64,000 nt of DNA from Amoebophrya sp. A120 (GCA_905178155.1 CAJINV010000002.1:7861650-7925649), one strand, 5' to 3'. Positions 10,961 through 62,704 are shown, numbered from the stretch's first letter. The notes: a model not told the origin generated them from the letters alone. Made by a program: numbers and translations.

Positions 10961-11864
10961 CTACTTTGGTTACAGGTTTCAAAACGGTTTGAGTTGTCAG
11001 TTGAAGTTTTACACCGAGTTGTAGTATTCTCAGGTCACACCTAACCTTATCTTTTCAAGCTTTCAGAGGGTTAGTAATCTTTGTTGGGTTCGCGAAAGTC
11101 GTCTCTGTGTTGTGACAATTTGAATCTGGTTGCTTGGAAATTTGACAACTTGTGTTTTGAACGATAAGGATAAGAGCCCTATGGTGGAGAATTTCCATTT
11201 ACTACTTACCGCTTTTACCTCTCGCACAGACATGCACGCCTTGGCCTTGTCGAGAATGAATATAAACTACCGCCTCAACAATCTAGTAGGTACTATCCCT
11301 GGTCCTTGAATCCTTGCCTTTCTCAGTGCTATTGAAGAAGCAAAAATTTCACTGGTGTCTGAAGATGAAGTTATCCTGAATCAGGCATGGATCTCGATGT
11401 CCTTCACGAATAGCTTTAATTGCCTATCATGCGAAGTTGGAGCAAATTTGCTGCGGGAAAAAAACGAAAACGGAGGAAAGTGCTAGATTCTTATCAAGTA
11501 AAAAAACACTTCTTTTGCACTACAACATGCCTTGACGCAATCATTGTTGTTCTGCTGCGATTGCACTACTTTTGCTTTTTTAGAAAAACTGCACTCTCAC
11601 GGCTGATATTCAGGCAGGAAAAAACGTCGCAACTACAAATGACCGAAAAACTATCGTGTTCATCATAGACCTAAGATCTCGAACACAGAGTTCCACAAAG
11701 AAAAAAAAAACTCAACACGGCTGTTTTTGCTTCACGGCGAAATTCTCTTACAAATGCGAGGTACATCAAAATGAGTGTGCCTGTTAATTAGAAGCGTCGA
11801 ATTTAAGAACATTAACTATGCGAGAAGTCGTGTTCACATCAATCGGCTTGGCGCCGTGGACCCT

Positions 11865-12445
11865 GAGGTCAAGAAGTTTGGCGTGGCGGCCATACGTGCG
11901 AGCATCTGGTAGTGCCGCTTGTCCATAAGTCGGTCCGGCAGCAGATCAAGCAGCAGTTGCCAAACCCACCGCTCTATGCATTGCAAATCTGTCTGGGTCT
12001 GGATGAGTGGAAGATTTGTCATGCACATTTTGCGTGACTCATAAATCTGTGATGCATGATGCCGTAGCATGACACTGACAGGTCGTTTTGTGAGGGCTTC
12101 CTAATGCCTATACCGCATGAGAAATATCCCCTACTCGTAGCAGCTAATAAAATCCTGTTTCTGCCCATGCAATACAGATTTTTTTAGAATCGAAAGGCAG
12201 CATTACAAGTTCGCATCCTTCCAGAGTCAGACCCAGACAGTTTTGCATTTGATACGCTCTACCCCATGACGACCGAGCAGGAGATGCTGGCGGCAGCGAC
12301 GGTGTTGCAGCAGAACGCGATGAATCGGCAGCGGGAGGAGGAGTTTCTGCTGTATCGGAAGGAGCAGGAGACGCAGCGGCAGGTGTTCAAATCCACCCGT
12401 TTTGAGGACGAGGAAGACGAGGTGGAGCCGATCTATTACAACTAG
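11865..12445 (+). pseudogene. Chimeric gene fragment: copy of the uL24 last exon abutting a plus-strand coding-like fragment (...QQLPNPPL|YPMTTEQEM...EPIYYN*) that carries an introner
   Basis: Frame is open across element 11975-12254 after removing the element plus CGCTC. GC3-rich codons on the plus strand; a TGA just upstream and no start codon. The minus-strand shadow frame is also open. Confidence 0.4.
11975..12254. mobile_element. Introner/MITE family A (280 bp), TSD CGCTC
   Basis: tatgcattgcaaatctgtctgggtctgga ... cagacccagacagttttgcatttgata; CGCTC at 11970-74 and 12255-59. Interior closely resembles 58874-59135. Confidence 0.88.
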
Positions 12446-12988: not shown

Positions 12989-13352
12989 GGTCAAAAAATG
13001 CCACGTTTTTTGAGCATTTTTGCTGGGCGTCGATAACATGACCCCGTATTTTGGGCTTTCCGCACGGGAATCTGGACTTTTGCGTAATTTTTGCGGAATC
13101 GATAACATGACCCCGTTATTTGGGCTCTTCGCGCGGGAATCTGGACTTTTGTGGAATTCGCAGAAATTCGCGAAAAATGGCGAATTCTTGAAAAATCCAG
13201 ATTTCCGTGCGACGAGCCTAAATAACAGGGCTATGTTATCGATTCCGCAAATAATCCGGAAAAGTCCAGATTCCCGTGCGGAAAGCCTTAAATACGGGGT
13301 CATGTTATCGACGCCCGGCAAAAATGGTCCAAAAACGTAGCATTTTTTGACC
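12989..13352. repeat. 364-bp foldback palindrome with 69-bp tandem subrepeats in each arm
   Basis: ggtcaaaaaatgc...gcattttttgacc; tcgataacatg at 13030 and 13099 mirrored by atgttatcga at 13233 and 13302; centre at about 13170. Confidence 0.9.
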
Positions 13353-13649: not shown

Positions 13650-14867
13650 CTATACATAGCTAGTTGTCCCGGAGGTCAAGAAGTTTGGCGTGGCGGCCAT
13701 ACGTGCGAGCATCTGGTAGTGCCGCTTGGCCATCGTCCGCTGCTGCTCCTATCAAAAGGAAAAATCCCCCCTCCCCATATCGAAGTGGAAATCTGTGATG
13801 CGGGATTTGCGTACACAAATGCGCGCTGTCTTGCAATACGGCATCGCAGCCAGATCCTCAGCCTATGGCGGGGCGTTTGGGTCTAGTTGTTTAGCATTGC
13901 AAACGGCTGTCCCCTAGGCCCAACAGCATGCCAAATCGGTTCCATAATGGCATGGAAGCCTGTGCACTTGTGTTCTTGCAAGACAGCCGTGATTTGTGGT
14001 CTCAAATCAGCAACACAAATTTTCGGAAACATGCCTTGCCGATATGGGGAGGGGGGATTTTTCCTCAGAATAGCTCCGTGCTGTGCACCACCGGACTGTT
14101 GACCGAAGTAATTCCCTTGTACTTTTTGTGCACTCTGGACTGGTTTTCGAACCTTTTCAGCAGCTCCTCGCGGTCCTCCCGGATTATTGGCACGGGGTCC
14201 GGCATCGCGCAACCGGACACTTTTGAGATACGCACGCACTCGCCGTGCATGGTGTACCTTTTATTAAAATGTGTGTGTTGATGTAATTTTGTTTGTAAAA
14301 CAAAGAAGCAGGGAAATAATTATCGTGCCTCATAGGTAAAATTTTTTCTCAACAAGAACTTCAACCACCTCTTCACCTCCGCTTCACCCTAGTTGGCTTC
14401 TTGAGAATGGGATCCACCGGCGCCACATTCGTTATGTGAATCGGTAGCTCCGTGGTACACAGGGTCTCCCCAACCGCCGTGTTCACCCGGAAGGTCTTTT
14501 TCATGTTCATCCCGTGGACCAGAACGCAGTTTTCCTTGCGCATCACCTTGCGGACCACCCCCTGCCGCCCGCTGTCTCGGCCGTAGAGCACTTGCACCAG
14601 GTCGCCCTGCTTCACGTTCATGTGGTAGGCGAGGTCCACCTTCTGTGGTATTCTGTTGTCGCGCAGAAAGTGCGGCACCGAGGGGGCGCGCGAAAATTCC
14701 AGAAACTCCTCCTTCATCAGGGGGTTCTTCCTTTTCGCCTTGATGTAGTGCTCGTTGTTCGCCCGGTTCCACCACCGCCGCCACTTCACGCCCTGCATGC
14801 GCCGCTGCATCCGCAAAAACTCTCCGCTGTTGCGGGAGTAGTGCAGGGGGCGGGACAGGGCGTACAT
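13650..14867 (-). CDS. MRPL24: Organellar (probably mitochondrial) ribosomal protein uL24; GT-AG intron 14258-14376 plus introner 13750-14072
   Basis: KOW motif KQGDLVQVLYGRDSGRQGVV, then ELPIHITNVAPVDP...PTRVKRR|YTMHGECVRISKVSG. The last exon EQQRTMAKRHYQM...SYV* is in frame after element removal. Confidence 0.88.
13750..14072. mobile_element. Introner/MITE family B (323 bp), TSD GCTCC
   Basis: tatcaaaaggaaaaatcccccctccccatatcg ... cgatatggggaggggggatttttcctcagaata; GCTCC at 13745-49 and 14073-77. Confidence 0.9.
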
Positions 14868-28479: not shown

Positions 28480-31400
28480 CTATGCAGCAAAAATTTCCTT
28501 CACCTTGGTGGCCAGGCCTTCGCAGGTGCCCTTTGCGTCTCCCAAGAGCATTTCCGTGTTGTCCTTGAAGAACACGGGGTTCTCCAAGTCCGCATAGCCG
28601 CCGCCCATGGTGCGCTTCATGAACACCGTCTTTTTCGACTTCCACACCTCGATAACCGGCATGCCCCAGATGCTGCAGCCCTCGATCTCCTGCGCGGCGG
28701 AATTTGTGATGTCGTATCAAATGCAAAAATGTCTGGGTCTGGAACAAAGCAACTTGTCATGCTAAATCTCAATCATGTAAAAATCTGTGTTGCATGATTA
28801 CCAAAAGCTGTTCACTTTTGACCTAATCGCGAGGCAGTTTCTCATGCAGGATAGGCATGATAGAACGCTCACAGAATCTGTCATGCTATGTCCTACATAC
28901 CAGACCTCATGGGTCATGAAAAACCTGCATGACAAGTCTGGCATTCTTCCAGACCCAAACATATTTGCATTTGATATGTCGTTGGCGCCGACAACGAGGG
29001 TAACGTCCACGTCGGTGATGTCCGGGTTGACTTCGTCCATCTCCAGCACGTGGTCGTAGCTCACGCCCGCCTCCGCGAGCAGGACGTTCATCTGCCCCGG
29101 CATGCGGCCGGCCACCGGGTGGATGCCGAATTCCACGTGCACGCCATTGTCGATCAACGCGTTTGCCAAGTCCGCGCACGCGTTCTGTGCCCGGCTGACC
29201 GCCATCCCGTAGCCTGGAACGATCAGAACTTTCTGCGCGGTTGCCAGAGCGTTCGCCGTCGCTTCAATGTTGGTTTCCACGTGCTCCTTTGGCGTGTCGT
29301 CGCCCGCGGCCGCGGGCGCGGCGACGTTCATGCCACCGAAGAGGACGTTCATGATGTCGCGGTTCATCGCGTCGCACATAATCTTCGTCAAAATACCACC
29401 GGAGAAACCAATCAGGGACCCAACCACGGTGAGAATCGGGGAATTCAGCAGAAATCCCTCGGCGACCAGCGCCCACCCGGAATAACTGTGTGTGGGCGAG
29501 GAAGAGATATAAATTTGTGGGATTTTTTCGAAAGGTATTTTGCTTGGATACACGCATGAAGAACGTTTAGATTTCTCAGTATCGCAAGCCAAGGAAAATC
29601 TGCACAAAATGAAAACAAAAAAGATGCAACTCATTGTCAGTTCTTTTAAGTACGAGTTCAGAACGGTGATGCACACTGGCATATCCGCTCCGCCGACGCT
29701 ACCGACCAAGTGGTATCCCATTACGTTCGACAAAACCGCAGTCAGCCACAGGTCCATCACTCCTCCGCCCGAGCTCAAGAAGTGCGCGCCGATCAGCCCC
29801 TGCAGCCCGAGCCCGCCCAGGTTCAACAGATTCTTGTTGGGCAGGTTCAGGGGTTTGGAATCCAGTCTGCCGTCCAGCTTCGCGAAGGCGACGATGGACC
29901 CGGTGAGCGTGACGCCCCCGATGAAATCCCCGAGCAGGGCACTGGTGTTGTGCATGGTCGCGCCCGCGACAGGATGGGCCGCGAAGGACCCAATGGACGC
30001 AAACATTGCCGCCGCACCGACCAAACTGTGGAACGCAGCCACGGTCTGCGGGAGCTGGATCGGGGAGACCATATTGGCCACGTGGTACCCACCGGCGCCC
30101 CCGGCACCGAGGAGGGCGAGGGCCGGGACCGTGTACCCCGGCTCGACGCCTGATAGGTTGGTTATCGTTATGGATCTTCTTCAATTCACGACATCACTAT
30201 ACTGCATGCAATCATTGACATTACGTCGACATCAAGTTCGGCAAAAAAAAAATGTGAAAACGATGAAATAAGTGTAGTGAGTACTCATCAGCGTGGTTGT
30301 GACCGCTCCGGCGATTCCGCACATGCCCAGCTTGCAGCCCATTTATCCAGTGGAAAAACGTCCCCACCCCATAGTCAACATGGGGACTCGGCTAGACAAA
30401 TCCACAAGCTTTGGCTCTTTTGCATGACAAATTTGGACTCGTAGTGTAGTGCTATTTGAGCTAGCCCAGCAGCATCACAGACATAGTGTATCAAGCTGAT
30501 TGGAGCATGACACATTTCAAAACACGACTGAAGCATGCTTCTCATGGGGCTCCGCATGAGAAGCTTTTTCTGCATGCAGATTTGCATGACAACTCTGGGG
30601 TGGGGACGTTTTTACACAGGATACCATGTCCGCAGTGGTCATCTTCGACAACCCGCCAATGGCGCCGATGCACATGAGCCCGCACACCGTGTTCGTCGGC
30701 TCGATCAGGTCCGCTCCGCCTACCAGCGGCGCGGCCACGACCATCCCGCCCGGTATTGCGAGCAAATTCGAGTGGTCCACGTCGCCGGGGCGCTTGAACA
30801 GATCCAGCATCTTCTTCGTGACCAGAAACCCACCGACAATGTTGACCGCGGAGATGCTCGTCGCGGTTGCGGCGAGCAGGTCCACCCCAACCCCGCCCTT
30901 CCCCAGCAGCATCATGCCGCCCAGCGCGGTGGCACCGGAGATCGCGTTGGTGACGGACATCAACGGGGTGTGTAACGCGTGCGCGACGCCCATGACGACC
31001 TGGTACCCCGCGGCGCCCGCGAGCGTGAAGGAGTTCAACAGACTGGGCGGAACGCCGGTCCCGATCGCCATCACAGTGGCGCCACCGGCCGCAATCATCT
31101 GGCTCGTTTGCATCATCTCTTTTTTCGGGTCAACTTTCTCGACTTCCTTCGCCTCTACCGTCTTCGGCTTGGAGACCGGCGTCGGCTGTGGGGGCGGCGG
31201 CATCTCCAGCTCCTTACCTGCAGATATGGAATTTTGGTTTTGCATAGCTCACTTTTTTTTTTCCATTACAGATTTGCAGCTCCATAAACTACTGAAAACT
31301 GTTTCTCATGTGGGCCTAGCACCTGACACGTAAGAGGATGCAACCTCGCAGCACATTTGGTTAAAACTACCGTCTCTGCAGGTGACCATGCTTCGCACGA

Positions 31401-33430: not shown

Positions 33431-35004
33431 CTACATGTTTTCAATCATGAACGACATGTGTGGATCGTGGATGTCTTTCGTGATACTGCGCCTCCGCAGC
33501 GTTTCCCCCACGCCGCCCTCCAGATCGTCTTCGCCACTGGACCAGACACCGGAACTGAGCGAAGAGGAACTGCTTTCCTTGATCGCGCTCTGTAGCACAT
33601 TTTTCCTTCGCTCGTATTCCTGAGCCGAAATTGCGTGCTTTTCCGCGATGGAGATCCTAGACAGGTCGTCCGGGGAGGAACTACTCAGCCCGCGGTCCGC
33701 TCCCGACAGGAGGCTAGTTGCAGTAGACTCTGCGGGAACATTAGGCGCACCTGCGGCCGTAGTGCCCCCGCCCCCGAGTTTGGTTGTTGTGGTCCCGGAG
33801 ACCAGGGCGCGCGCCGCGTCGTGCAAGGGGAAGGCTTTGAAGAACCAAACCAGCGCGGCAACCAGCGGGAACCAGTCGGCGTGCGACCCCAGGTTGTCCC
33901 TCCAAGTGTCCTTTTTGCGCATGCGACTGTCCTTGTACAGGTACTGCATGGATTCGTAGAGGGAATTGGTCAGGGGGTACTTCATGTGGTACTGGTACAG
34001 CACCGTGCCCCAACAGACGGCCGCCCAGAGGCGGCGGATGACGGTGCGCTGGAAGGACGTGGTTTTGAAGAGCAGCACATTCTTGCTGTTGCTGCTTCCC
34101 GCGCACCGCTTCACGAAGGCGACCAGGACGCGGGACATGATGTACATGTTCATCAGGTCGTGGAACCCAGATTTGTATCAAATGTAAAAATGTCTGGGTC
34201 TGGAAACTTGTGATGCTAAAATGTGCATGATGAAGACACTTCCGAATGCAGTCCGGCATGACAACTTCCCAAAACTCTTTCTCATAGGCAATCCGCATGA
34301 GAAACTGCGTTTTTGCATGACGATGGAGGCTGCGACTTTTGTTGGTTATGCAATACAGATTTTCTAGGTATGGAAAGCTAGCATTACAAGTTCCAACCTT
34401 CCAGACCCAGACATTTTTACAATCCATAATTTGCTGCCCCAAACGATACCGCCCGACAAAAAGCCCGACACGAACCAGTGCCACGGGCGCTCGAAATTCC
34501 CCGGCGTTATCCTGTCAGTCGGTTTGGATTTCGTTCTGCTCTGAACAAGTCACAAAGAGTGAGGAATTTGCACCGGTAAAAAGTAAGTATCTAGAAGCTG
34601 TTTATTGAGTTCATCACATTTTGATTTTTAGGTTTAACAGGTACAACAAATACGCCGCCAAATACTACAAACACCCTCCGTCCTTACCTTCTCAACAGAA
34701 AGAGCCAGGTCTTCGCGAGCGCGACGTTTAGGCCGAGCGAGCTTCCGTGGTCGAAGGCTGCGTTGGTGATGGTGTTAATGAAAAACGCCGGCGTGAGTAC
34801 CTTGTTTTCACTGGCGAACAGCCACGTCTTCACTAACGCGTCCACCACGCGTATCCTGGTTCCGTAGAGGATCCCGTGGAAAAACCCGTTGCGGATAGTT
34901 CGCGTGTTGTCGTGGGGAAAGTAGTACTGGGCATACCGCGACGGGGTCACCTGCCGCAACAGCGAGGCGCTCGGGTTGTCGTCGTCCATCATAGGGACGT
35001 TCAT
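33431..35004 (-). CDS. PXMP4: Peroxisomal membrane protein 4 (PXMP4/PMP24); GT-AG intron 34512-34687 plus introner
   Basis: RNGFFHGILYGTRIR..LVKTWLF, GGIVWGSK|SGFHDLMNMYIMSRVL, WAAVCWGTVL and SLYESMQYLYKDS match the PXMP4 pattern. Confidence 0.8.
34176..34428. mobile_element. Introner/MITE family A (253 bp), TSD ATTTG
   Basis: tatcaaatgtaaaaatgtctgggtctggaa ... ttccagacccagacatttttacaatccata; ATTTG at 34171-75 and 34429-33. Confidence 0.93.
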
Positions 35005-36219: not shown

Positions 36220-37014
36220 GTTCCATAGATCAACGATGCGAGGAAGATCACTCAGAAAACAAAAGTATCTTGTCTTTTGGTCTTTTTTGTCTACTCCTGT
36301 AGGCCTCACGCATTCACGCTATTAATTTCTATACTTTTACGACTTACATGCTGAGTGCGCGCACAGATAGCAAGGCGCCCTGTTTCTGGGATACCTGGGA
36401 GCCTTATCCTCCCTTGCTGGGTACAAGCGATTTCGCCCGTATGTGGTCCGCCTCGGTGGACTGAAAAAAGCGATCGATGAACGGATACATTGGAAAAATT
36501 CGCACTGTCCAAAAGATTAATAGATTGTAGCTGATGCATTGCCACCCGGGGGGAGGCGAAAGTTTCAAAAGCGGCACTATTCATACCTGATAAAGCACCA
36601 GGGGTGATAGCAAGTAGTGTTGCGTGGATCTTCGAATGTTTTGGCGTCCGCGCACTTGTCGGCTGCGATGGCACATTCCGCTTTGGTGCCGGATTTTCAT
36701 TATCGACTGCAAATAAACCAATTAGGGAAAGCGCCAGTGAAGGAGTCCGCGCGACGACGCAGGCTCAGCCCCTTTTCCATTACTCTAGAGGGACAAACAA
36801 GATGATGAGCATCAACATGTTGTACCGAGTCCAAGACACTATAAAGTCAATACAGACAATATGTAGTACCGGCTGTCGCAGTTCCGGCTGACGCAGCTAT
36901 TACTCGGTAACTTCGCCTCTGCCGTGTTGCCGCCAACAAACCCGGAGGGTTCCATAGATCAACGATGCGAGGAAGATCACTCAGAAAGCGCGCTTAGATC
37001 AACGATGCGAGGAA
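36220..37014. repeat. 39-bp exact direct repeat (36220-36258, 36949-36987) plus a 20-bp third copy (36995-37014)
   Basis: gttccatagatcaacgatgcgaggaagatcactcagaaa occurs twice; tagatcaacgatgcgaggaa occurs a third time. Confidence 0.85.
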
Positions 37015-37594
37015 CTTGCTTGCGTGGCCGCCCGTGTCGCAGCGCCTCCTAAAGTAACCCGACTGGCTAAACCCGGGACACCAGACACGACCACAGGTAT
37101 GATCAAATAAAATAACCTAAGCTAAAAATAATGATTCATATTTGATAAAGAGCCTAAGTTGTAATTAAAAATGAATGAATAAAACTCTGACGATTTTTTA
37201 GTTTTAGATTTTCCCAGTCGGTGCTGGGGTTGGACAGATATTTTATTATAAACATAGGAATGCGCAGATACTGGTGCCAATGCACTTTGCGCAACAAGAA
37301 CTACTCGCGCTTCGTCTCCAACTCCATCTTCTTTGGTATATTAAAACAAAAGGACGACGATGACCTGGTCGGTCTCAGGCTGTTTCTTTTCAGATGAAAC
37401 CTCCTTTCGACTTACGATACCAATACGTCCTGCTCCACAACCAGCCAGCAACAGCATCTTCCGTCAGACAACTACGATAAGGCGCAACGATATTAAGGAG
37501 CGCTGGGAGATGATGTCCGTCGGATGTTGACGAGGAAATGACGGGCCGTTTCGTTCATCATGGACACAACTTCAAATCGTCGTGACGAACTGAT

Positions 37595-37862
37595 TATGAA
37601 ATGCAAACATGTAGTCTCGGTCTGGAACTTGTGATGCGCGGAAGGGAATACCTAGCGCGCACACTGCATATGCGATGCAAAGCATGACAAGTTTTCCCGC
37701 GGTTCTGAGTTGTGTACTTACTCCGGATGAGAAACTGCGTTTTTGCATGACAGGCCAGGGGGGCTCTTTGCGGCCACGCAATACAGAGTTCGGAGCCATG
37801 CCAGACTAGCGCGACAAGTGAGTCTCGCAATGTCCCAGACCCAGACATAATTGCATTTGATA
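37595..37862. mobile_element. Degenerate family A element (268 bp), TSD eroded, not in a recognised CDS
   Basis: tatgaaatgcaaacatgtagtctcggtctggaa ... cccagacccagacataattgcatttgata. Interior shares atgagaaactgcgtttttgcatgac with 34176-34428. Confidence 0.8.
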
Positions 37863-39010
37863 CTACCTATGATGACTACAGCTGTTGGAGACACAACTAA
37901 ATACTACGCGCGACTCTCCTTCGAGACTCACACATCCGTCGTTTTCGGCCTCTGAGGGCGCCACCCTTCGCGACGTTCCTCCTGCGTGTTCCTGCTCAGC
38001 AGTTGCAAAAGTGTAGGTCGTCAAGAGATGGCGCAGGTACTCTGCCCTACGCTTGTTACGGCATCTGCATCCGGTGCAGGCGTAGGTGCAGGTGAAGGCG
38101 GCTCACCTTCCACGTGTTCCAGAACCGCTTGAAAGGTAGAGGAGGGCAGCACCAGTTGCAATTCATCTTTCAGGCTTTTCAGCATCTCCGCAACAAGATC
38201 GGGGAAACGCCGGGAGGGAAGGAGTATTGCGCTCTATCCAACAAAACAACTGTGGCTCGCCAGAAAATTTCAAAATTTACAAATCAATGTGCGAAGAACT
38301 CAAAAAAATGCAAGGCAAGGCACCGCAATCCGCCAAAATGAGCGATCGTCGTGCTGGTCGTACCGTCGCAGCTTGTTCAGAATTAATCTCACATATCATC
38401 AGGGCAAGTACTTTAAGTACTTGCCCTTATGAGCACAGTTATGAGCTTGTTCAGAACAGTTAGTTTTCTAATAGCAAACTAACTGTTCTCGCAAATTCCG
38501 AAAACTTGGTGGATACACTTGCATGTAAGGCCGCTGGCATGTGCTGCTGCTCACTTAAAAGAAATCTTGCATCAGCGGCCTTTTTTGTTTTCTTGGATAA
38601 TAAGCCCGCGCGGTCAACTTCAGCCATTTTCAAAAGGGTTCCAAATTATGCATTGCAAATGCAATAGTATCTGGCTCTGGAGAAGTGGAGCTCCTTAGGT
38701 GTGGTAGGCGCGCGCCTGTTTTGCGTTGCTGGAAAATCTGTAGTGCGTGACCCGAAAATAAATGGGTGGGTGAATGCGTGGCGCCGCGTGACATACCTCA
38801 TCAGTAATAGATCCGATCGGCCTGCTTGCTTCGACGCCATTTGGCCAGCACGAGCGCCCACCAAGCATGCAGATTTGAGAGAGAGAGAGAGAGAGTTAGT
38901 GATGCAAAACCATGATTATCCGGCGCCGGCCCCGGCCCGGGGCCCGGCCTCCTGCAGGGGTGATTCAGTTGCTTCGGTTACCCATACCTTCGAAAGCGCA
39001 CACTCTCTAG

Positions 39011-42000
39011 CTATTCGTCATGCAGTATTACCGCTTGCAATAATGAGAATTCCGTACTAGAAAGCGTTCGAAACGCTTGCCGGCGTGCTTGGGTACGAAT
39101 AAATGTATATGTGTCAGCAGTCCCACATCCAGAATGTCCAGACGACAAGAAAGATACTACATTTGCAATGCATATCACTTCCTCTGCAATTTTGTTCTTG
39201 CTCGCTTCGCCCTGAAATTGTTCTGCCTCCGCCGCCCTGAAATACAGGGCATAAAGTTTCAGGACAACGCGGTAGGTGCTCGGAGTCGGCTCCAAATTTT
39301 CTGAACGGATTTCCTCCAGCATGTCCTCGGCGTCTTTGATCCGCCTTGCTACGTCGCTAAAAGATGAAGCGTCGCTTGCTTTTTCGAGATATCGGCTGAT
39401 CAACGCGTAGTACGTGAGAGCATCGTGATCCACGTTGTATTTTAGCATCGAATCCAGAACCCACTTAACCCCCTCTTCTGTTTTCGAAGCGGGCATCCGG
39501 GGCGTTCTTCTGCTTCGGGTCCTGTCTTGCTCTTGATTCTGATAGTTGGTGCCGCAGTACGCAAACAAGAACTTGTTATACGTTTCTACCTTGGGGGGTC
39601 CTACGTGTGTTGTACCGCCAGGCTGCTGCTCCTGCGCCATCTGCTCATGCATCATTTCGAGAACCCTCCGTGCGCTATCGGTATCGTCCGCGTTTAGGTA
39701 ACGCACAACCAGTTCTTCCGCAATCCCAAATGTGAACTTGTCTGGCGTCCCCACTGCCCGCAACATCTGTCCCAGGATCCGTCTTTGCTCTTCTTTCGGG
39801 ACACTTTTGGGCGGGTTGCGATGCTCGCGTCTAGTTCTAGGCCTGCTATAGAGGCGTAGGAGGTTGTAGAGATGCTCCCTACTGTCTCTGGTGGTGGCGT
39901 CCATTGCTTCCAGATGCGCAACGAGCAGACCGAGCCGCGCGTTATCCCTACAAAACCACGGACCAGTCCCTGCCTGCTGCGTAAGTAGGAGGTTGTCGTA
40001 AAAGGCCAGGTCGACCGGTGCGCCGCTACTCATCGAACTTCCCTTATTGTTCCCCTTGCCGCCATCGCTGCTGCTTCTGGGCCACCAACCAGACCGCAAC
40101 TGCACTGTCCCCAGCTTTGCTGCCACCTCAATATCGCATGCAAATGTGTCTGGGTCGGGAAAACTCTGATACGCATTTTTTTTAAGATCGCGGCCACGGA
40201 AAGATCTGTCATGCTTGGGCAGTAAAAGTTGCTCTTCTTGTTGTTACCAAGAGAAGTTAGTTATTTGTCACGCAGTGGCCTAGGCATTTAAGAAACAGTC
40301 TCAAGAAGAACAGCTGTGGGCGTGGTTCCAGGGCTTTGCGTGGCAGATCATCTTCTGGGCCACGGAGACACTGCATCACAGGCTTCAGCAATCTTCCAGA
40401 CCCAGACACATTTGGATTTGATACTCCATTTCGCGGAGCAGCTCCCTGGCCTGCTCTGTCCTGCCCGTCCTAGCATACTGTTGCAAAATAATACGGAAGG
40501 TAGCAACGCTAGGCATCACATTTGCGTCCTGTTCCATCAAGTCCAGCACGCGGCTAATGCCGTCGCGGATAATGTCGCCACGCTTTTCGTTGTCGCCTTC
40601 CGCGTCAGCCGCATGACCGTGCGCATCCAACAGCGCGTGGTAGGTGGCGACATTCGGCGCAATGCCTTCCACTATCATCATTTGAAACTCATCATATGCG
40701 CCCCGAACGTTGCCGCTCGTAGCGCAGGCACCAACTAGCGCGTTGTAGGTGGCGACATTCGGCGCCACGTCTGCGCTCTTCATCATTTGAAATACACAGC
40801 GCGCACCCAGTTCGTCGCGATTGCGGGCGTAGGCCTGTATAAGAACGTTGTAGGTGGCTACATCCGGCGCCACGCCTTCCGCTGCCATCATTTTAAACGC
40901 ACGGCATGCACCCGGAACGTCGCCCTTCTTAGCGTAGGCATCCACTAGCGCGTTGTAGGTGAAGACATTCGGCGCCACGCCTTCCGCTCTCATCTTTGGA
41001 AGCACATCGCATGCGCCCGGAACGTTGCCACTCTTGGCGCAGGCACCAACTAGCGTGTTGTAGGTGACCACATCCGGCGCCACGTCTGCGCTTCTCATCA
41101 TTTGAAATACACGGCGCGCACCCAGTTCGTCGCGATTGCGGGCGTAGGCCTGTATCAGAACGTTGTAGGTGCCGACATTCGGCGCTACGCCTTCGGCTAT
41201 CATCCTTTTAAACACATCCCATGCGCCCGGAACGTCGCCACTCTTAGCGAAGGCATCCACTAGCGCGGTGTAGGTTAAGGCGTTCGGCGTCAGACCTGCG
41301 GCTCTCATCATTGGAAGCACACTGTATGCGCCCGGGGCGTCGCCATTCCGAGCGTGAGCTCCTATGAGCATGGTGTAGGTGGCGACATCCGGCTCCAGGC
41401 CTGCGTCTTTCATCTTTTGAAACACACGGAATGCGCCCAGAACGTCGCCCCTCTTGGCGTAGGCATCCAGCACCGCACCGTAGGTGGCGACATCCGGCGG
41501 CGCGTTGTCCTTCGTCATCCTTGTCAGGATAGCCTCGGCGCCCTCCAGATCGCTAATATTCAGATATCCTCTCCGCAGCGTGTTGTAGGTGACGACATTC
41601 CGCGGCACGTGGTCGCGCTTCATCCTCTGCAGGACATCTTCTGCGCCCTCGAGATTGCCAACCTTCACATAGCCGCTCAACAACGTGTTGTAGGTGACGA
41701 CATTCCGCGGCACGTGGTCGCGCTTCATCCTCCGCAGGACATCTTCTGCGCCCTCGAGATTGCCAGCCTTCCCATAGCCGCTCAACAACGTGCTGTAGGT
41801 GACGACATTCGGCGCAACTTTGTTCTCGTCGGCCTTCATCCTCGTCAGGATAGCTTCTGCGCCCTCCAGATCGCCAGCCTCCACATAGCCGCTCAGCAGC
41901 GTGTTATAGGTGACGACATTCGGCGCCTCTTTGATCTCTACCATCATCCTCGACAGGATAGCTTCTGCGCGCTTTAGATTGGACCTGCCAGCCTTCACAT

Positions 42001-42977
42001 AGACGCTCAGCAACGTGTTGCACGTGACGACATCCGGCACCACGTTGTCCCCCTTCATACGCGACAGGATAGCCTCTGCGCCCGCCTCATCCCCAGCCTT
42101 CACATAGCCGCGCAGCAACGTGGTGTAGGTGACGACATCCCGCGCCACGTTGTCCTCCTTCATCCTCGACAGGACAGCTTCTGCGCCCTCCAGATTGCTA
42201 GCCTTCTCCTCTACATGGCCGCCCGGCAAAATGTTGCAGGAGGAGGTGTTCTATACAATGCAAAGATGATGTCTGGGTCTGGAAGACTCCAGGCGTTCTG
42301 GTCATGTCGCTCTTCCACGCACCAGCCACAAGAGGCCAGCACCGTTGGGAAGAGCATGTCGGGCTGCCTGTAGTTGTTCCGGAAGGTCTTTCTCTTTGTC
42401 TTTCTCTTTTCATCAGTCCCTGAATTGCATGAGAAACATCATCCCCCAGCTTGACTAAAAGTGGGCAGCGCGACGGACTCTTCTGCTGGGAGCCATGCAA
42501 GACAGATTTAGTCTGTATCTGTGACCTACCGAGGGTGGAACAAGTCTGCATCCCTCCAGACCCGGACATTGTAGCTGCGGTTGATATATCTTCATCCACG
42601 TAGCGCTGAATTTCCTTGTTGAAGAACATGGACACAGATTTATGATATCCACCTTTCCCGCCCCCCACGCGCGACGGGGATCCATGACGAGACGCCGGCC
42701 CTTTGCCACTGCCTTTGCCGCCGCTGCCTCGTCCTCTTCCCTTCATCGAACCAGTTCCCTTATTCCCCTTGCCGCCATGGCTGCTGGTTCCGAGCTGCAA
42801 ACCAGATTGAAACTTCACAGCCACCACTGTTTGGAAAAAGTAGGTAGTGCTCGGAGTAGTCTGAAAACGTTCCCCACTCAGCAACGCTCCCAAGAAATCT
42901 CCTTGCATGTTGAAAAACAGGCCACCGGCGTAGGTCGTTGCAAGGACGCGACGAACAGAGGGGAGCATTTTCATTTT
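39011..42977 (-). CDS. Pentatricopeptide repeat (P-class PPR) protein, about 14 canonical plus several degenerate motifs; interrupted by 2 introners
   Basis: 35-aa repeats PDVVTYNTLL..Y.K.G....A..I...M in ORF 40385-42229. Flanking ORFs join in frame after removing elements 42252-42586 and 40132-40423 (+5 nt each). Start and 3' end uncertain. Confidence 0.88.
40132..40423. mobile_element. Introner/MITE family A (292 bp), TSD CTCAA/CTCCA
   Basis: tatcgcatgcaaatgtgtctgggtcgggaa ... ttccagacccagacacatttggatttgata. Confidence 0.85.
42252..42586. mobile_element. Diverged family A introner (about 335 bp), TSD degenerate
   Basis: tatacaatgcaaagatgatgtctgggtctggaa ... tccagacccggacattgtagctgcggttgata. 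Removing 340 nt gives YVDEDTSSCNILPGGHV in frame with the PPR ORF. Confidence 0.72.
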
Positions 42978-44281
42978 TATCGAGACCGTCTGTAACTGAA
43001 GCACTCTAATGAAGTAGAAAGATAAAGATAAACCAATATTTTAAATTACTCGGATAAAGTCAGAAGCAACCTTTCTGTTCAAAGCGAAAATCAAGAGGAG
43101 AAGAGAATTTTTAAGAGACAAATGAAAGAGTAAGAGACCGCGTCTTGCAGCCAAATAATAAATATCCTAGGCCTTGACGATTCTAGCAGAAGACAGTAGG
43201 GGTTGTGGTTTTATTTGGAAAATCAGGGTATATCAGCGCTCACTATGTATAGTTAAATGTAGATGTTTTCAGTACCGGAGAATCAAACCCAGAAACAATG
43301 AAAGCTCCTGCGCCGAAAGCTTGTTTCTTGGTTTTTTCCAAAATGTCAAATTGTATTTCCGCTGCCCATTAGCATCAACAGGAGGGAAGTGATGTCATGA
43401 TCTCAAATTTTTCAGCTGCGCCAGCACGCGTACTTAGTCAACAATCTTCGCGATTCGTGACATCTGGCCGCACAACCGACAGTTCTCTACTACTCCCCTC
43501 GAAAATGAGTGATCCATTTCTTTTGTAGTGATCCATTTCCAATTCACTAATTAGTCTCACCACGGTACCGAGTGAAATTTTCCTTGCCTTCAGGTGGTAG
43601 GTTGCAGTAGAGAAGAGCAGTTTGTTTCTTCAGAAGACTTTTCGACTTTGATTTTGCTTTCGAACATTTTTAGCTTTGAACTCGCATTTGATCCGATGTC
43701 GTCAAAGATCCGATCGGATTTGTTTCGGCAAACATTTCACCGACTGGATGAAGCAAACTTACTGGAGAAAGCTGATTTTTGGCCCAGTAATCAACTTCGA
43801 ACTCTGGATCCAAAAAGCTTCAAACAAAAGCAAAACATTATCTATACTAAGAGGAGATCAGAATGTACTTAAGTACCTCTCCATCGATCCAGATTGCATA
43901 CTTACACCTCCCTCTCGATCTTCAAATAACGCCGAAAATCTTCTTCGGAGACGGCGCGACTACACCGAAATGCATGATCTCTACTCTACCTCGGTGTACA
44001 TTCACGGACTGAACGCCAAGGAACTTCATGCTGAGTCTTCACCTTTCAGGCTGTCAAGTACTAAGGTACTCGCTGAACAAAGTCGGCAACTGCGGTTGCG
44101 ACTACGTACTGCATTTTTGTGCTGTTTAGAGCCAAATTCTTGTTTTAGTGTTCCTCGTCGTTGATCGCTACAAGAACGCCAACAAAGCAAACCCGGAACC
44201 GAGTTTCATCGGCACTAGCTCTGGTGTTCAACTGGAGATCAGACGAAAAAATCCCGTTTACTGAATCAAGTACGACGAGCT

Positions 44282-56770: not shown

Positions 56771-59700
56771 TCAGGGGCTCGTCATTTCTGTGCCCTTTTC
56801 CGCGTCCTTCCCAGCTGCGGGGCTGACCTTTTTGTTGTCGCCTCCGTAGAACTTGGCCATCGATTCCTTGCAGAAGTAGCACATGGCCGCGAAGGCCACG
56901 CCCGCACAGAAGCACAGGCCGAACAACACTCCGATCAGAATCCACAGCCACGTCAAGGAATCTCCCTCGTCGTCCTTCTTCTCTTCGGCCGCAGTGCCCC
57001 CCGTGGCCGCTCCACTGCTTTGCGGCGATCCCTGCGTTCCGGCGTTGGCCACGGCGCTCGGAACGCTGTCCCAGCCGGAGCCCTGCACGGAGGGGTTTTG
57101 CCAGTTCGCGCCGCCCTCCGCCGCCGCACCGCCCGCGACGTTGGACAACGCCGGCTTGGAAGCCAACCCGTTCACGGCGAGCACCAGGCTTGCGGAGGAC
57201 AGCGTGCTGTCCGCCTGCGATTCCTGCCCGAAGTAGTCGACCAAAAGATTCCCGAACCCCGGGTCCGCGACCTGCTCCATCAGTTCGTCGGGGGACTGCG
57301 GCGGGGCGGAGTCACTGGCACTACTGCCCATGCTACTCCCCGTCGGAGGAGTTACCGTCGCGTCCGCCTGGATCAGCTTCTGCGTACCGTTGGAACCGGC
57401 CTGCAACAGACGGAGCAACAGGCCCTGCTCGGAAGCCGCGGAGGAGGAAACCCAAGACGAAGACGCCGCTTTGTTGTTACGCTGTTCCATTTCGAACACC
57501 TGCAGCGCTTCCTCCAGATCCGGGTCCGCAAGCAGCATTCGGGCGGTCGACACGGCGGCCGTCCCGGCCGCGTCGGTGTAGTTCAGCTTGCTCGCATCGA
57601 TGGTCACGGCGCTGCTGCTGAGACCGAGCGCGCGGGACACTGTCCGCGACAGCGCACTTACCAGTGCAGACTTGACCGTCGAGGACAGACTCGCCACGTC
57701 CGACTGGATGAGCAGCTCCAGCTTCATGTCGAACGACCCCGCGGGATCCGTGTCGAACTGCGCGAAGTGGCACCACAGGCGGTCGGCGCGGAAGACCGAG
57801 TACCGCGAGCTGTGCGTGTAGTTCATCTTCCCCACGGAAAACAGGCCGGGCTGCATGAAGCTGCAGAACCTCCGGGACAATTCACGCGCGTGCACCCCAG
57901 GCATCGCCACTCGCCGGTTCGTGTCGTCCAAGCTCGTCGGGTTGAAGGCGCCGACGAACTTCGACGCGCTCGTGTTGTTCGCGATCGCGGCGGTTGCCTG
58001 GTGCATCTTCGAGTTCCCCTTGTATTTCATGTCCAGCGTCGCGGCCGGAAACCAGGGCATGCCGGTGGGCACCGGCTTGCCGGAACCAAACACGGCGGAC
58101 TTCGCGGACCGCGACCGGATGTTCGCCGGCAGCTCCGCGCACGTGCTGGCCGACACCTCGTTGCAGAAGCCCACCGTACTGCCGTACTGCACGTTGGACG
58201 ACGCGACCGCGTCGCGGTTGCACCGCGTCTTGCTGTCGCACAGGTTGTACTCGAGCCGGTTTTCGCTCCCGGGAAGTTTCAACGCGGACCCGCGACTCGC
58301 GATCTTGTCGAACGCATTGTACTTGGTGGCCGTGAACCCGTTGTGGTTGCGGATGGCGCCCCAGGACTTGACCAGGTTGAACTCGTCGGATCCCATGTTG
58401 TTCACGATCGTGTGGTATGCAGTGCAAAAGTATCGCACTCGTAGTAGTTGCAGTCATGCATGACAAATCTGGTTCCTTAGCTCATTCAGCAATACAAATC
58501 CCATTTCTCCTTCTGGACAAATTTGCAATGCTATTTCTACTAGTACGATACTTTTGCAATGCATATGTGATTGTCCCCCTTGACGGTGAACGGGTCGTTT
58601 CCGAACAGAACGTTGCGCACCACGGTGGTGAACCGCCCCGGGTTCGTGGCGGTGCTGCTGGTGTCCAGCCGGATGGACTTGATCTTGGTCGGGCCGAAGA
58701 TGAAGTTCCCGGAAATCAGGGTCCAGTACTGGCCGTCGATCTGGATGTGGAAGCTGGCCGTGTCCTTCCAGCTGCCCATGTACCCCGTCCCCACGATCAG
58801 GTTGTTCTTGCACTGGTACCCCCGCGCCCAGTGCTTGAAGCCCCCGCCGTGCCCGTTGTACAAAAGCGTGTTCTATCAAATGTAAAAATGTCTGGGTCTG
58901 GAAGATTGGCAGGTTTGTCATGCACATTTTGCATGACTCCTGATGTCTGTGATGCATGCCCTAGCATCACAGATTTTGTGAGGGCTTCCTGATGCCTATA
59001 CCGTATGACAAATGCTCTTTCCGTGTAGCAAAACTTGGACTCTCTTTGCTGCTCATGCAATACAGATTTTTTTAGAATCCAAAATCAGCATAACAAGTTG
59101 GATTCTTCCAGACCCAGACATTTTTACATTTCATATGTTCTGCTGGAGGGTGTCCTTGAACCCGTCCCCCTGTATCCCACAGAAAAAAGCTGGCAGGTGC
59201 AGGTCATATTTGTAATGCAAAAATAAATAGACAAAAAAATTTGTATTGCATATCCTAAATAGCATGCTATGAGGCCGCCCATGGCAGATTTTTCTGTGTA
59301 TTTATTTTTGCATTACAAATATGCCCCGCCAGCTTTTTTCTGTGGGATACCCTGGAAGCAGTACTCGTAGCCGTCCGTGTTCTTCCGGTGCGCGTACCCG
59401 TTGAAGGCCACGTAGTTCCGGCTCACGAACGCGTTGCTCGCCTTGTAGCGGACCGCCCGCTTGGTGGCGCCGGCGACGATCGCGTTGTCCGCGATGAAGA
59501 GCCGCTTCCCGCTGCCCCGCCCGTTCTGCTTGGTAGTGAAGATCTGCACCGTGGCCCAGCTGCTGTGCGGGGGGGAGTACAGAAAGTGGTTGTACAGGAG
59601 GTAAATGTTCAGGTTGAACTTGTTCCCCACCAGGGGCTGGCTTTTGGAGCAGCAGTTGGTCCCGAAAAAGTGCAGCCCCTCGATCCAGATGTAGGTGTTG

Positions 59701-61121
59701 CGCTGCTTCAAGTTGATCGGCCACGCCTTCGACTGGTCCTTGACCCGGACGTGCGGCGGCCAGCCGTCGCGGTTCACGTAGTTGTGCTGCACCGACAGCG
59801 CGTGCGGGGCCCCGGACGCGGCGTAGAACAGCTTCTTGCTCGCGGTGTCGTACCACCACCAGGTGGAAGTCGAGGTGTCCAGCGTGGCCTCGGCGTTGCT
59901 GGCCAGCGTCGAGAAGTACTTGGTCGGCAGGTTTTTCCCGAAAGTTCGCCCGTACCCGAGCGGCGAGTAATGGTTCACGGTTTGGACGGTCTGTGTTTGT
60001 CGTTGATTTGATGACACTTCCATCTTTCAAGATATATTTGAGGACTCGTCTCATGGCTAGATTCATTCAATGTGGTACGTTGGTACGTTATACTCCTGGT
60101 TGTGGAAGTTTAAGCAAATTATGTCGACTTTTATTCAGCACCAGACGCTACCCATATTTATTACATTGCTCTAATGTCATCGTAGGTAATGCGCGAAGAC
60201 CTATATTCTACTTACCCCGTTCGCGTCCACTTTCGGCCCGGTGATCCGCTGCGTGTCCTGGTGCCCCACGTGCATGGGGTCATAGACTACACAGGGCACG
60301 CTCGAGTGCGCCAGGCCGTGGCCGCCGCTGGAGTCGCCGGTCGCGCACTGCATGGACTCGGCCATGAAGACAAAGGAGGCGATGTTGTTGGTCACGTTGG
60401 TGCCGTCGACGAGCGCGGACACGTCGGCCTCGTAGTACGCCTTGTTGTTTCCCGCCGCGGACGTGGTGTTCACCAGACTCCAGACCAGCTCCTGCGTGAC
60501 GTTTCGCGTGCCGTCCAGGATGGCGATGGTGGAGTCCGACTGGATGGCCAGGTTTTGCCGGTCCTCGACCACGGCCCCGTGCAGCGCCTGGTCGTAGAAC
60601 CCGGCTGCCAGCTTGCAGTTCGTGAACTGCAGGTTCCGGCTGCTCGACGTGGACGTGCCGTACACGTCCGCCTGGTCCACGCATTTTTGGATGGTTTGAA
60701 AGGCGTCGCCGAGGCTCTGCCCGCTGTTCAGGTCCGACCCGAGCTCGGGGCTCACGTAGTAGCAGTTCATGGTGCAAGATTCCTGTGTACTCGGCTTCGA
60801 CGGCTCGTGCGCGCTGCACAGGTCGTTGGGCACCACCTCCCACTTGTTATCGTCGAACCAGACGCCAATCGTGTCGGCCGGGGCGGAGGACATCCCGATG
60901 TTGCCCATGCACTTCACCGTGTAGTACCGAATCCCCTGCGTGCCGCACTCCGCCCACTTCCGCGGCTCACCCAACTTCGCGCATCCGACGGTGTAGGAGT
61001 CCACCATCTTTTCGTACTTACCGCGGATCTGCGCTCGGGCGGGTAGGAAAATTCCGAAGTGAACATGCTGCACAACTGCCAGGAAGTGGGCAAGCAGTGC
61101 GCCGCTTCTTGTGGAGGGCAT
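56771..61121 (-). CDS. Large type I surface protein: signal peptide, TSP1-like Cys module, pectate-lyase-like beta-helix region, C-terminal TM; GT-AG intron 59991-60215 plus 3 introners
   Basis: W.ECGTQGIRYYTVKC...LC....KPSTQESCTMNC; YVSPELGSDLNSG....AFQTIQKCVD; TM WLWILIGVLFGLCFCAGVAFAAMCYFC. The frame is continuous after removing the three elements. Confidence 0.75.
58416..58565. mobile_element. Introner/MITE family D (150 bp), TSD TGTGG/TGTGA
   Basis: tatgcagtgcaaaagtatcgcactcgtag ... ctactagtacgatacttttgcaatgcata. Removal gives KGDNHTIVNNMG. Confidence 0.9.
58874..59135. mobile_element. Introner/MITE family A (262 bp), TSD TGTTC
   Basis: tatcaaatgtaaaaatgtctgggtctggaaga ... tcttccagacccagacatttttacatttcata. 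Removal gives DTLQQNTLLYNGHG. Confidence 0.94.
59173..59349. mobile_element. Introner/MITE family E (177 bp, largely palindromic), TSD CCCTG
   Basis: tatcccacagaaaaaagctggc ... gccagcttttttctgtgggata, with further arms catatttgtaatgcaaaaataaata / tatttatttttgcattacaaatatg. Removal gives CFQGDGFK. Confidence 0.93.
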
Positions 61122-62704
61122 CCGACTGCGTGCGGAAAATGAAAACTTCAGTTGTCCCATGGTTTCGATACACTTATCACTGGAAGCCGAAGCACACACA
61201 GTGAAAAATTGTGGAAATATTTACTGCACAAATAATACAGGAAAGTCAGGAAGCCATACAAAGAAAAAACACTGCCTTTACACAAGTGGAGGTCCCTATC
61301 TACTCTAGGTGTGAGAGTACTTTACAGCTTGCGGTGGTCTGGTCCGTTTTCTTGCAATTACATAGAGTTTCCTCCTTGGGAAAGAGATCAATGAACCTGG
61401 TAAGTAGTTTTTTTCTTCAAAGAACTACCCAAAAGATACCTCCAGAAGAGTTGTCCAGCGTGATAAAAACGATTGCAAAATTGACAGTGTACGTGGACGT
61501 GAACGTGAACGTTTCTTTTGCCGCGATGCACGAGAAAAGTAGAGTCACGATGATCAAACCGACCCCAAGCGCAGTACATCTTGCTTCCTTTTCTTTTCTT
61601 CTGTACGATGGAAGCAGCGGTTAGCCGAGGAATAGACTTGTCACATACCGATGTTGGTATGGGAGGACGGAGGAGAAAGCAGCTTGCTACAAGCAAAGCT
61701 TGTTCCTGATCAATATCAGTGCCGATCGGAATCGGGTGTAGTTCCTACGATCCACAGTATTTTTCTTTACTCATTGCACCTGCGTACACAACAAAAAATC
61801 TGATTATTCGTAGTTTCAGTGTGCTGTAATCAATAGGTCATCTTGTTGAGCAGCTGGATATGCTGCACTGTACAAGTACAAGTTCATTCGCGGGACCTCA
61901 ACACTAGCTGTGCTAGCTTTCTAGTATGTGCAAGGCATTTTCAGTTCAAAGTCAAAACAATTGCATATGGTACAAGACATTTTGTTTCTGTAAGCGAAAT
62001 AATAACCTAAAACCTGTATCCCGACCGGAGAGTTTTTGTCACAACTCTCGTCTCAATTCTCGGATACTCTGTCTGACGATTGATTCAACAACGATTTCAC
62101 TACCTGATGTCACAACCTTAAACCTTTTGTCTGTATATCAACCTGTGTCTGATGAAGATCATGATCTTTCCTCGATTACTTTGGAGCAACTTCCAGGAAG
62201 CTTGTTCTACTTGTGTGAAGATGCTCCTGGCCCATACAAGCACACCGTTAACGTTCAACCGGAGTTGGCGACTCCAGGAAAACGAGCGGTCCTTGACAAG
62301 GCAAGATACTACTGCAGTCCAGACAATGGAACCGCTCTGTGTACAAGCTACCAGCGCTGCTGTGCCTATATCAATGGCCAGCACTGTGCTATTGCTATAT
62401 TTTTCTGAGTCTGATTCGATAAAAGTTTCAGATTTACAAAAAGTGTGCAAGCAGGATCGCGAGCACTATAACTGTGAACTCATAAAGTAAGAACCTTCCG
62501 TGAGCGTGAGCAGTTCCTTCCATTCTTACCTTTTCCGCCTATGGAGGAGTCAGCTGAGACAATCTCAACTACTACAATGACGACCTTTTATGACGTAGGT
62601 CAGGCACCTCATCATTGTGGTCGTGTACTTATGTCTCAAACCATGCTGCTAACCAACGTCGATGCAAAACCGGTCATGCACAATCACGAACTGCAAGCTG
62701 CAGG

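Follow-up and report, generated by a model that had tools for sequence, protein, structure and literature searches.

In a 64,000-bp stretch of Amoebophrya sp. A120 (GCA_905178155.1 CAJINV010000002.1:7861650-7925649; the whole of it is hereafter the window), introns bounded by differing inverted repeats share a short internal word, GCA(A/T)NACA, raising the question of whether this word acts on DNA, while the elements spread, or on RNA, while they are removed. Both the mode of introner movement and the mode of splicing are left open in the available portions of the literature on A120.

Introners of the window and their ends

The TAT…ATA elements of the window are known introners of the Amoebophrya A120 type. 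The available passages of Farhat et al. 2021 (PMC7789003) describe A120 introners as non-canonical introns of ~240 nt in many families, with 3-5 nt direct repeats and with inverted repeats made of TAT, seven variable nt and at least three A; the window elements agree in their TAT start, A-tract, direct repeats and non-GT-AG removal. The class itself is already known; the motif, the spacing of its pairs, the tandem cores of the terminal inverted repeats (TIRs) and a fixed splice register were not found in the literature searched, and the PMC7789003 passages describe no internal motif, spacing or tandem core, although the supplementary figures of that source (S19-S25) may bear on them. The literal motif 9-mer gave 0 matches in the literature and 0 in the supplement text searched, and the motif is absent from the passages available of bioRxiv 10.64898/2026.07.09.736142, PMC11282704 and PMC11453091.

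Fifteen elements were recovered in the window from TA(T/C)…(A/G)TA ends, an A-tract and 5-bp flanking repeats, combined with inspection by eye, and a sixteenth (38235-38599) was added from RNA data (Table 1). A scan with the family-A TIR reached at least 145 loci (796 kb, under a single accession prefix), and the elements are the only sequence common to the 145 listed loci and the window. Window and listed loci together yielded 345 distinct elements with a median length of 262 bp, using a filter that required TA(T/C), at least three A and a match between the copies of the target-site duplication (TSD) and thereby excluded very old copies. Among the matches listed, 331 of the 345 sort into 13 core families and 14 are unassigned; family A (170 elements) is over-sampled by design.

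The observed traits of the elements are those of non-coding insertions with TIRs and 5-bp TSDs, found without target preference, in both orientations and exactly removed from RNA. TSDs are perfect in 281 of the 345 listed elements and carry one mismatch in 45, a TSD match having been part of the filter. No target preference appeared among the 201 TSD sites examined, and a proto-splice-site bias was rejected (AGG in 4 of 201). Orientation relative to the transcript, callable for 253 of the 345 listed elements, is balanced (67 to 62 in family A); the strand caller was correct for six of six window elements in genes of known strand, with a seventh uncalled. Among the matches listed, elements longer than 380 bp are open for at most 150 aa, and the longest measures 972 bp. 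Three long introners (L068:11014-11985, L045:3862-4492 and L023:10304-10760) keep ends and motif sites intact around non-coding filler, suggesting that interior length is free. In run X6, the summed contig depth of family-A ends in 58754-59236 reaches up to ~7e5 against ~45 for single-copy DNA, which suggests thousands of copies, this depth being no copy number in itself.

TIR positions 1-15 (TAT-C/G-N4-G/A-N-AAAA) are common to the families and only the core at about positions 16-30 differs; arm identity falls beyond ~30 bp. An A occupies positions 11-13 at 96-99% across 10 families, at least three A having been part of the search filter. The initial annotation had called the TIR cores unrelated and counted five TIR types; taken as a whole the TIRs are not unrelated, and six types of core occur in the window. 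Tandem runs with a period of 6 and a length of at least four bases, family-specific in sequence, are present in the core of 9 of the 13 family consensuses, which are not 13 independent cases because six of the families are related; 2000 shuffles gave a mean of 0.55 and a maximum of 4, and other periods occur in 0 to 2 families. Cores built as family-specific 6-bp tandem repeats, rather than arbitrary sequence, are as compatible with a set of related transposases as with a single enzyme. An example lies at 58890-58901 of the window; on visual inspection, the cores of G and D are almost reverse complements of each other, and H combines one unit in either direction.

With the motif masked, the interiors of D, G, H and J and those of M and N are still homologous (z is 9-19 in M-N and in most D/G/H/J comparisons), while those of A, B, C, E, I, K and F are mostly unalignable (z mostly <3). 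Homology combined with differing cores indicates that, in this one group, cores turn over on one backbone. The exchangeable cores proposed at the outset are therefore borne out for D/G/H/J and M/N and not for the other seven families, whose unalignable interiors, along with the lack of a long or coding element among those found, lend no support to the common master element proposed with them. Families B, D and K have a motif-like site within the TIR at position 4, and in B and K the distance from this site to the first inner one is 30-31 bp. The outer TIR (positions 4-12) scores as a degenerate motif copy in B, D and K and at 38650 and 39164 of the window.

Additional features of the window touch on its genes and repeats. 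The pieces of the 1186-aa host protein (56771-61160) have no Pfam match; a hydrophobic stretch lies close to its C-terminus, and it may be a surface protein. The PPR transcript (36958-43313, minus strand) holds five introners of differing ages, four of them inside a 1137-aa ORF. The XPB gene at ~46.3-48.8 kb is a single uninterrupted ORF, and among named relatives of this helicase the best, with 68% identity, belongs to Amoebophrya sp. A25. The family-F element is nearly palindromic over its full length (a second inverted repeat, of 45 nt, lies in 59199-59329), so its outer motif pair belongs to the extended arm. A 364-bp GG…CC foldback with internal repeats (12989-13352) lacks the motif and forms a separate element class; the families listed for A120 include one of GG/CC Mutator type. 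A 71-bp duplicate (94%) at 11856-11926 and 13663-13733, with no copy in the 145 listed loci, has an introner within 50 bp after each copy, the two introners belonging to different families. Two identical 39-bp sequences in direct orientation lie at 36220-36258 and 36949-36987, 729 bp apart, and an X1 contig spans 36229-36978.

Table 1. Introners, motif sites and reference features of the window
Coordinates	Feature	Strand	Size, TSD and motif sites	RNA or other evidence
27-313	Family-A introner		4 sites	Outside RNA contig coverage
11975-12254	Family-A introner		5 sites	Outside RNA contig coverage
12472-12697	Family-B-type introner		5 sites; TSD GCTTT	Outside RNA contig coverage
13750-14072	Family-C introner		Pairs 13794/13827 (33 bp) and 13978/14010 (32 bp)	Outside RNA contig coverage
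17675-17883	Family-D introner		3 exact sites	Outside RNA contig coverage
28715-28976	Family-A introner, transhydrogenase gene		4 sites
30344-30623	Family-E introner, NAD(P) transhydrogenase gene		Six weight-matrix sites, one direction; three pairs with spacings of 31, 33 and 30 bp
34176-34428	Family-A introner		4 sites
37595-37862	Older family-A introner		4 sites; TSD copies differ at 3 positions
38235-38599	Old introner		No motif; no matching TSD	Removed as 38231-38600
38647-39174	Old introner		528 bp; 1 exact site	Removed as 38643-39175
40132-40423	Family-A introner, PPR gene		2 sites
42252-42586	Old family-A-like introner, PPR gene		1 exact site
56771-61160	Host gene	minus	1186 aa	Once three introners and one GT-AG intron are removed
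58416-58565	Family-B introner		150 bp; sites 58458 and 58489 (plus), 31 bp apart	RNA contigs connect 58410 with 58566
58874-59135	Family-A introner		262 bp; TIRs ~30 bp; TSD TGTTC	Probably missing with one TSD (58869-59135), from record coordinates and the 1186-aa ORF
58916-58923, 58948-58955	Same-direction motif pair	minus	32 bp apart
58964-58971, 59003-59010	Inner sites of 58874-59135	plus	Exact; degenerate	Weight matrix
59057-59064, 59088-59095	Same-direction motif pair	plus	31 bp apart
59136-59167	Exon between two introners	minus	32 nt	X1/X4 contig coordinate gap; ORF continuity
59173-59349	Family-F introner		177 bp; TSD CCCTG; sites 59211 and 59242 (minus), 31 bp apart, and 59310 (plus)	Probably skipped in RNA contigs
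59991-60215	Canonical GT-AG intron	minus	Motif-free	Serves as control

The motif and the spacing of its pairs

The GCA(A/T)NACA motif in introners is real. Within the window, GCATNACA has 41 matches against 7.6±2.9 in 100 shuffles (maximum 15), and 36 of the 41 fall in the 15 TIR elements, which occupy 4,131 of the 64,000 bp. The wider form GCAWNACA (W = A or T) occurs 64 times, 51 inside these elements and 13 outside. Across the window and the listed loci, which are the scope of all enrichment results here, its density is 15.0/kb in the 345 listed elements, compared with 1.22/kb in the non-redundant sequence outside them (552 kb); the 87,532 bp of listed elements hold 1313 sites, where 30 dinucleotide shuffles give 59±6.5, and 342 of the 345 listed elements hold at least one. 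AT-matched tiles outside elements reach 1.49/kb, and the motif-rich ones among them more often hold TIR-like ends (0.48 vs 0.15), so this background probably consists in part of missed elements. Eight RNA-confirmed canonical GT-AG introns (1,639 bp) contain no exact motif and two weak matrix matches. In this sample, the motif is thus commoner in introners than in canonical introns or background, as the initial annotation had expected.

The five elements in which the motif was originally noticed (58874-59135, 30344-30623, 13750-14072, 58416-58565 and 59173-59349) all carry it. The estimate of about seven copies in 58874-59135 came close (4 GCATNACA, 5 GCAWNACA, 6 by weight matrix), the four copies in 30344-30623 were recovered (4 GCATNACA, 6 by weight matrix), and the further copies are present (GCAWNACA: 3 in 59173-59349, 2 in 58416-58565 and 4 in 13750-14072). 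The proposal that every family carries the motif agrees with an unbiased ranking of one-wildcard 8-mers, in which GCAT.ACA comes first and is found in at least half of the copies in 8 of 8 lineages. Single elements can lack it, however: 38235-38599 has no site, and 38647-39174 and 42252-42586 have one exact site each.

Motif columns are more conserved than other interior columns in 13 of 13 family alignments. They vary at 3.9% against 7.0% in other conserved interior columns, about half, in counts that mix selection before and after insertion. In family A, motif number is not significantly related to age (Spearman 0.11, p 0.16, very old copies having been filtered out), with mean site counts of 4.23, 4.53 and 3.6 at 0, 1 and at least 2 TSD mismatches.

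The recurring unit is a same-direction pair of sites 31-33 bp apart, rather than an inverted pair. Among the matches listed, it occurs in 117 of 170 family-A elements (null 16), 17 of 40 in B (1.4), 26 of 41 in C (2.3) and 21 of 32 in E (4.8), as well as in 7 of 9 in D, 4 of 4 in J and 3 of 3 in K. None of 200 random placements matched its frequency in families A, B, C, D, E, H, J and K, whereas in G, I, M and F the frequency equals the null maximum; N has none. An opposite-direction site often lies 15-17 bp along from the paired sites. Site orientation varies between families, and the exact sites of family E all point in one direction, forming three pairs. The inverted pair just inside the TIRs that had been called typical describes 167 of the 331 family-assigned elements among the matches listed, whose outermost sites are inverted and at most 60 bp from both ends; these sites are inverted but deeper in 63 and same-direction in 88 (27 of 32 in family E and the majority of D/G/H, among the matches listed), and 13 elements have fewer than two sites. 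Three helical turns span 31.5 bp, so a spacing of 31-33 bp points to double-stranded DNA.

Removal from RNA and the splice register

Contigs of runs X1 and X4, classed as RNA by guess, skip GT-AG introns and agree with the window letter for letter, and were on these grounds read as mRNA; the DNA-like run X6 retains the GT-AG intron 59991-60215. The RNA contigs lack 11 of 11 covered elements (11 of the 16 window elements are covered), each time the element plus 5 nt and without GT-AG, on the basis of eight listed joints, one case of contiguous record coordinates and two cases in which a 32-nt gap is taken as the intervening exon. Once elements are removed, the genes read as ORFs of 1186 aa (56771-61160), 1036 aa (transhydrogenase) and 1137 aa (PPR). 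The 119 raw reads of run X9 match element ends only, with no junction among them.

At 38231-38600 and 38643-39175, the TSD copies have fully diverged, making the cut unambiguous: the element is removed together with 1 nt of flank on its upstream side and 4 nt on its downstream side. No register other than this 1+4 form, counted outwards from TAT and from ATA, fits all eight listed joints, all of them in minus-strand genes, with both unambiguous joints from run X1 and one gene. The intron starts with N-U-A-U-(C/G), which resembles spliceosomal donor positions +2 to +5, and has no AG. The excised intron has a strong predicted hairpin (z -8). In the available passages of Farhat et al. (PMC7789003), U1 is described as apparently missing in A120 and splice sites are called variable relative to the hairpin; the eight listed joints in one register suggest that this variability is partly an artefact of TSD alignment.

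What may read the motif

On balance, we consider it probable that GCA(A/T)NACA(A/G) pairs are a double-stranded DNA site for a mobilising, likely integrase-type, protein. Indirect support for an integrase type comes from a family of A120 that the available passages of PMC12130899 list as 'Ginger; 5-bp TSD, TA/TA termini' and whose ORFs are Copia/Gypsy-related. The transposase would act in trans, supplied from elsewhere in the genome, binding motif pairs and ends and inserting copies with a 5-bp stagger. A motif pair, three turns apart on one DNA face, would load or multimerise it, in the manner of subterminal repeats in other miniature inverted-repeat transposons (MITEs), and the 6-bp tandem core may confer family specificity. 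The outer TAT-N7-AAA, together with arm-to-arm pairing, would serve both cleavage and removal from RNA. Splicing would read the ends only, and copies losing the motif would stop spreading and stay spliced; 37595-37862, which is old and keeps four sites, counts against motif loss with age. No transposase is reported in A120 in the passages available of Farhat et al. (PMC7789003), which argue against general transposase-mediated mobilisation. Among the 42 ORFs of the window, Pfam revealed no autonomous element or integrase; a crude screen of 859 locus ORFs in the matches listed gave one weak flag for an integrase signature, no candidate protein was found, and no distant TIR pairs with matching TSD were found in the window and listed loci.

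A splicing role of the motif is unlikely, and we regard an RNA splicing signal, whether a splicing-factor site or an extension of the terminal hairpin, as most improbable. The elements are indeed introns without GT-AG, and predicted RNA folds pair motif bases more often (0.69-0.86) than other interior bases (0.54-0.64). However, the motif has no fixed transcript strand among the matches listed: family E, whose sites lie mostly on one strand, sits in transcripts either way round (17 sense, 11 antisense), so that one strand of the motif predominates in some pre-mRNAs and the opposite strand in others, and family A divides 67 to 62. Mirrored sites show an offset of -2 or +8, their N base matches in 34 of 116 against a null of 52.7, with no co-variation, and the two end sites in the predicted fold of 58874-59135 are unpaired with each other. 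Moreover, weight-matrix scoring likewise gives no site in 38235-38599, an element that keeps its terminal stem and is skipped in one X1 RNA contig, which argues that the motif is not needed for removal; two other old elements have one exact site each, and this case for dispensability draws on three old elements, one gene and single RNA contigs. The shared site for one transposase or excision factor suggested by the initial annotation is thus upheld as a sequence-specific site across families, whereas excision, understood as RNA splicing, is disfavoured. RNA could also enter as the vehicle of spread, the excised hairpin intron being reverse-transcribed and inserted by a retrotransposon integrase, with the motif recognised on the excised intron or its cDNA. 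Integrase-like 5-bp TSDs, which have a parallel in LTR elements, the strong hairpin (z -8) and the lack of a reported DNA transposase in the PMC7789003 passages would suit such a route. We nevertheless find it distinctly unlikely, as the excised intron has 1+4 nt of host flank, yet the elements end cleanly in TAT…ATA and no carried flank is seen among the 281 perfect-TSD copies in the matches listed; both orientations are also equally common (67 to 62 in A).

A serious rival at the level of DNA is a host DNA-binding protein (architectural, chromatin, repair or transcription factor) that binds the motif and helps elements move or be tolerated, with family-specific transposases reading the 6-bp cores. 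It would explain a common motif alongside differing, structured cores and fits the same DNA-level spacing, and MITEs that amplify host factor sites are known (PMC5950925, in the passages available). We judge it rather unlikely, since the motif is rare outside elements, where many matches are clustered and often lie beside TIR-like ends, and the motif-like TIR site of B, D and K (spaced at 30-31 bp in B and K) ties the motif to the cleavage end. A last reading, in which the motif is a functionless residue of common ancestry and of internal duplication of a ~32-bp unit, draws on the shared ancestry of D/G/H/J/M/N and on families amplified from few founders. The motif persists, however, in seven lineages whose spacers and interiors are unalignable, its columns vary at roughly half the rate of their neighbours (3.9% vs 7.0%) and site orientation differs between families, all of which make a mere residue very unlikely.

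Elements of the Tn7, Mu, CACTA and hAT groups bear multiple transposase sites at set spacings within their ends, and Tn7 and Mu make 5-bp TSDs; their termini and motifs differ from those of introners. The available passages on the Emigrant MITE (PMC1636448) report that Lemi1 transposase binds its TIRs and, cooperatively, subterminal repeats. Introners resemble it as non-coding MITEs with subterminal repeats and a repeated motif at set positions, whereas Emigrant belongs to the Pogo superfamily, is one family with a known partner and is not an intron, and the motif here is common to lineages with different TIR cores. Family 38 of A120, termed 'Ginger-like' (Gozashti et al. 2025, PMC12130899, passages available), is a TIR DNA element with the same 5-bp TSD and TA/TA termini, but differs in its length of ~808 bp, TIRs of 49-53 bp and Copia/Gypsy-related ORFs. 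Ginger1 and Ginger2/TDD are likewise TIR elements, with TGTNR termini, TIRs of 40-270 bp, an integrase ORF and mostly 4-bp TSDs with target preference, according to the available parts of PMC2836005; TDD-4 and TDD-5 make 5-bp TSDs as here, whereas introner termini are TAT(C/G), TIRs ~30 bp and target preference absent in 201 sites. The end-plus-pair pattern had 0 matches in the prokaryote genomes and viral contigs searched, the family-A TIR had 0 in the viral contigs searched, and an Rfam search gave 0.

More tentatively, it is possible that the thousands of non-canonical introns of A120 are modular transposons of an undescribed integrase-type superfamily, with one protein serving all families through GCAWNACA pairs and with the ends setting the splice register. 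Pairs would be read on one helical face, TIR cores would turn over as 6-bp tandem units, and the register, N/UAU… to …AUA NNNN/, would be measured from the hairpin without GT or AG. A register fixed by the ends would allow insertion anywhere, in either orientation, to restore the mRNA exactly.

For Amoebophrya A120, a motif of defined sequence and spacing can be used directly as bait to capture the mobilising protein and as a signature in the hunt for a master element, and the 1+4 register opens the chemistry of splicing to testing. Spreading, signalled by the inner motif, would thereby be separated from splicing, signalled by the ends, and scar-free removal from mRNA without target preference is of interest for the theory of intron gain.
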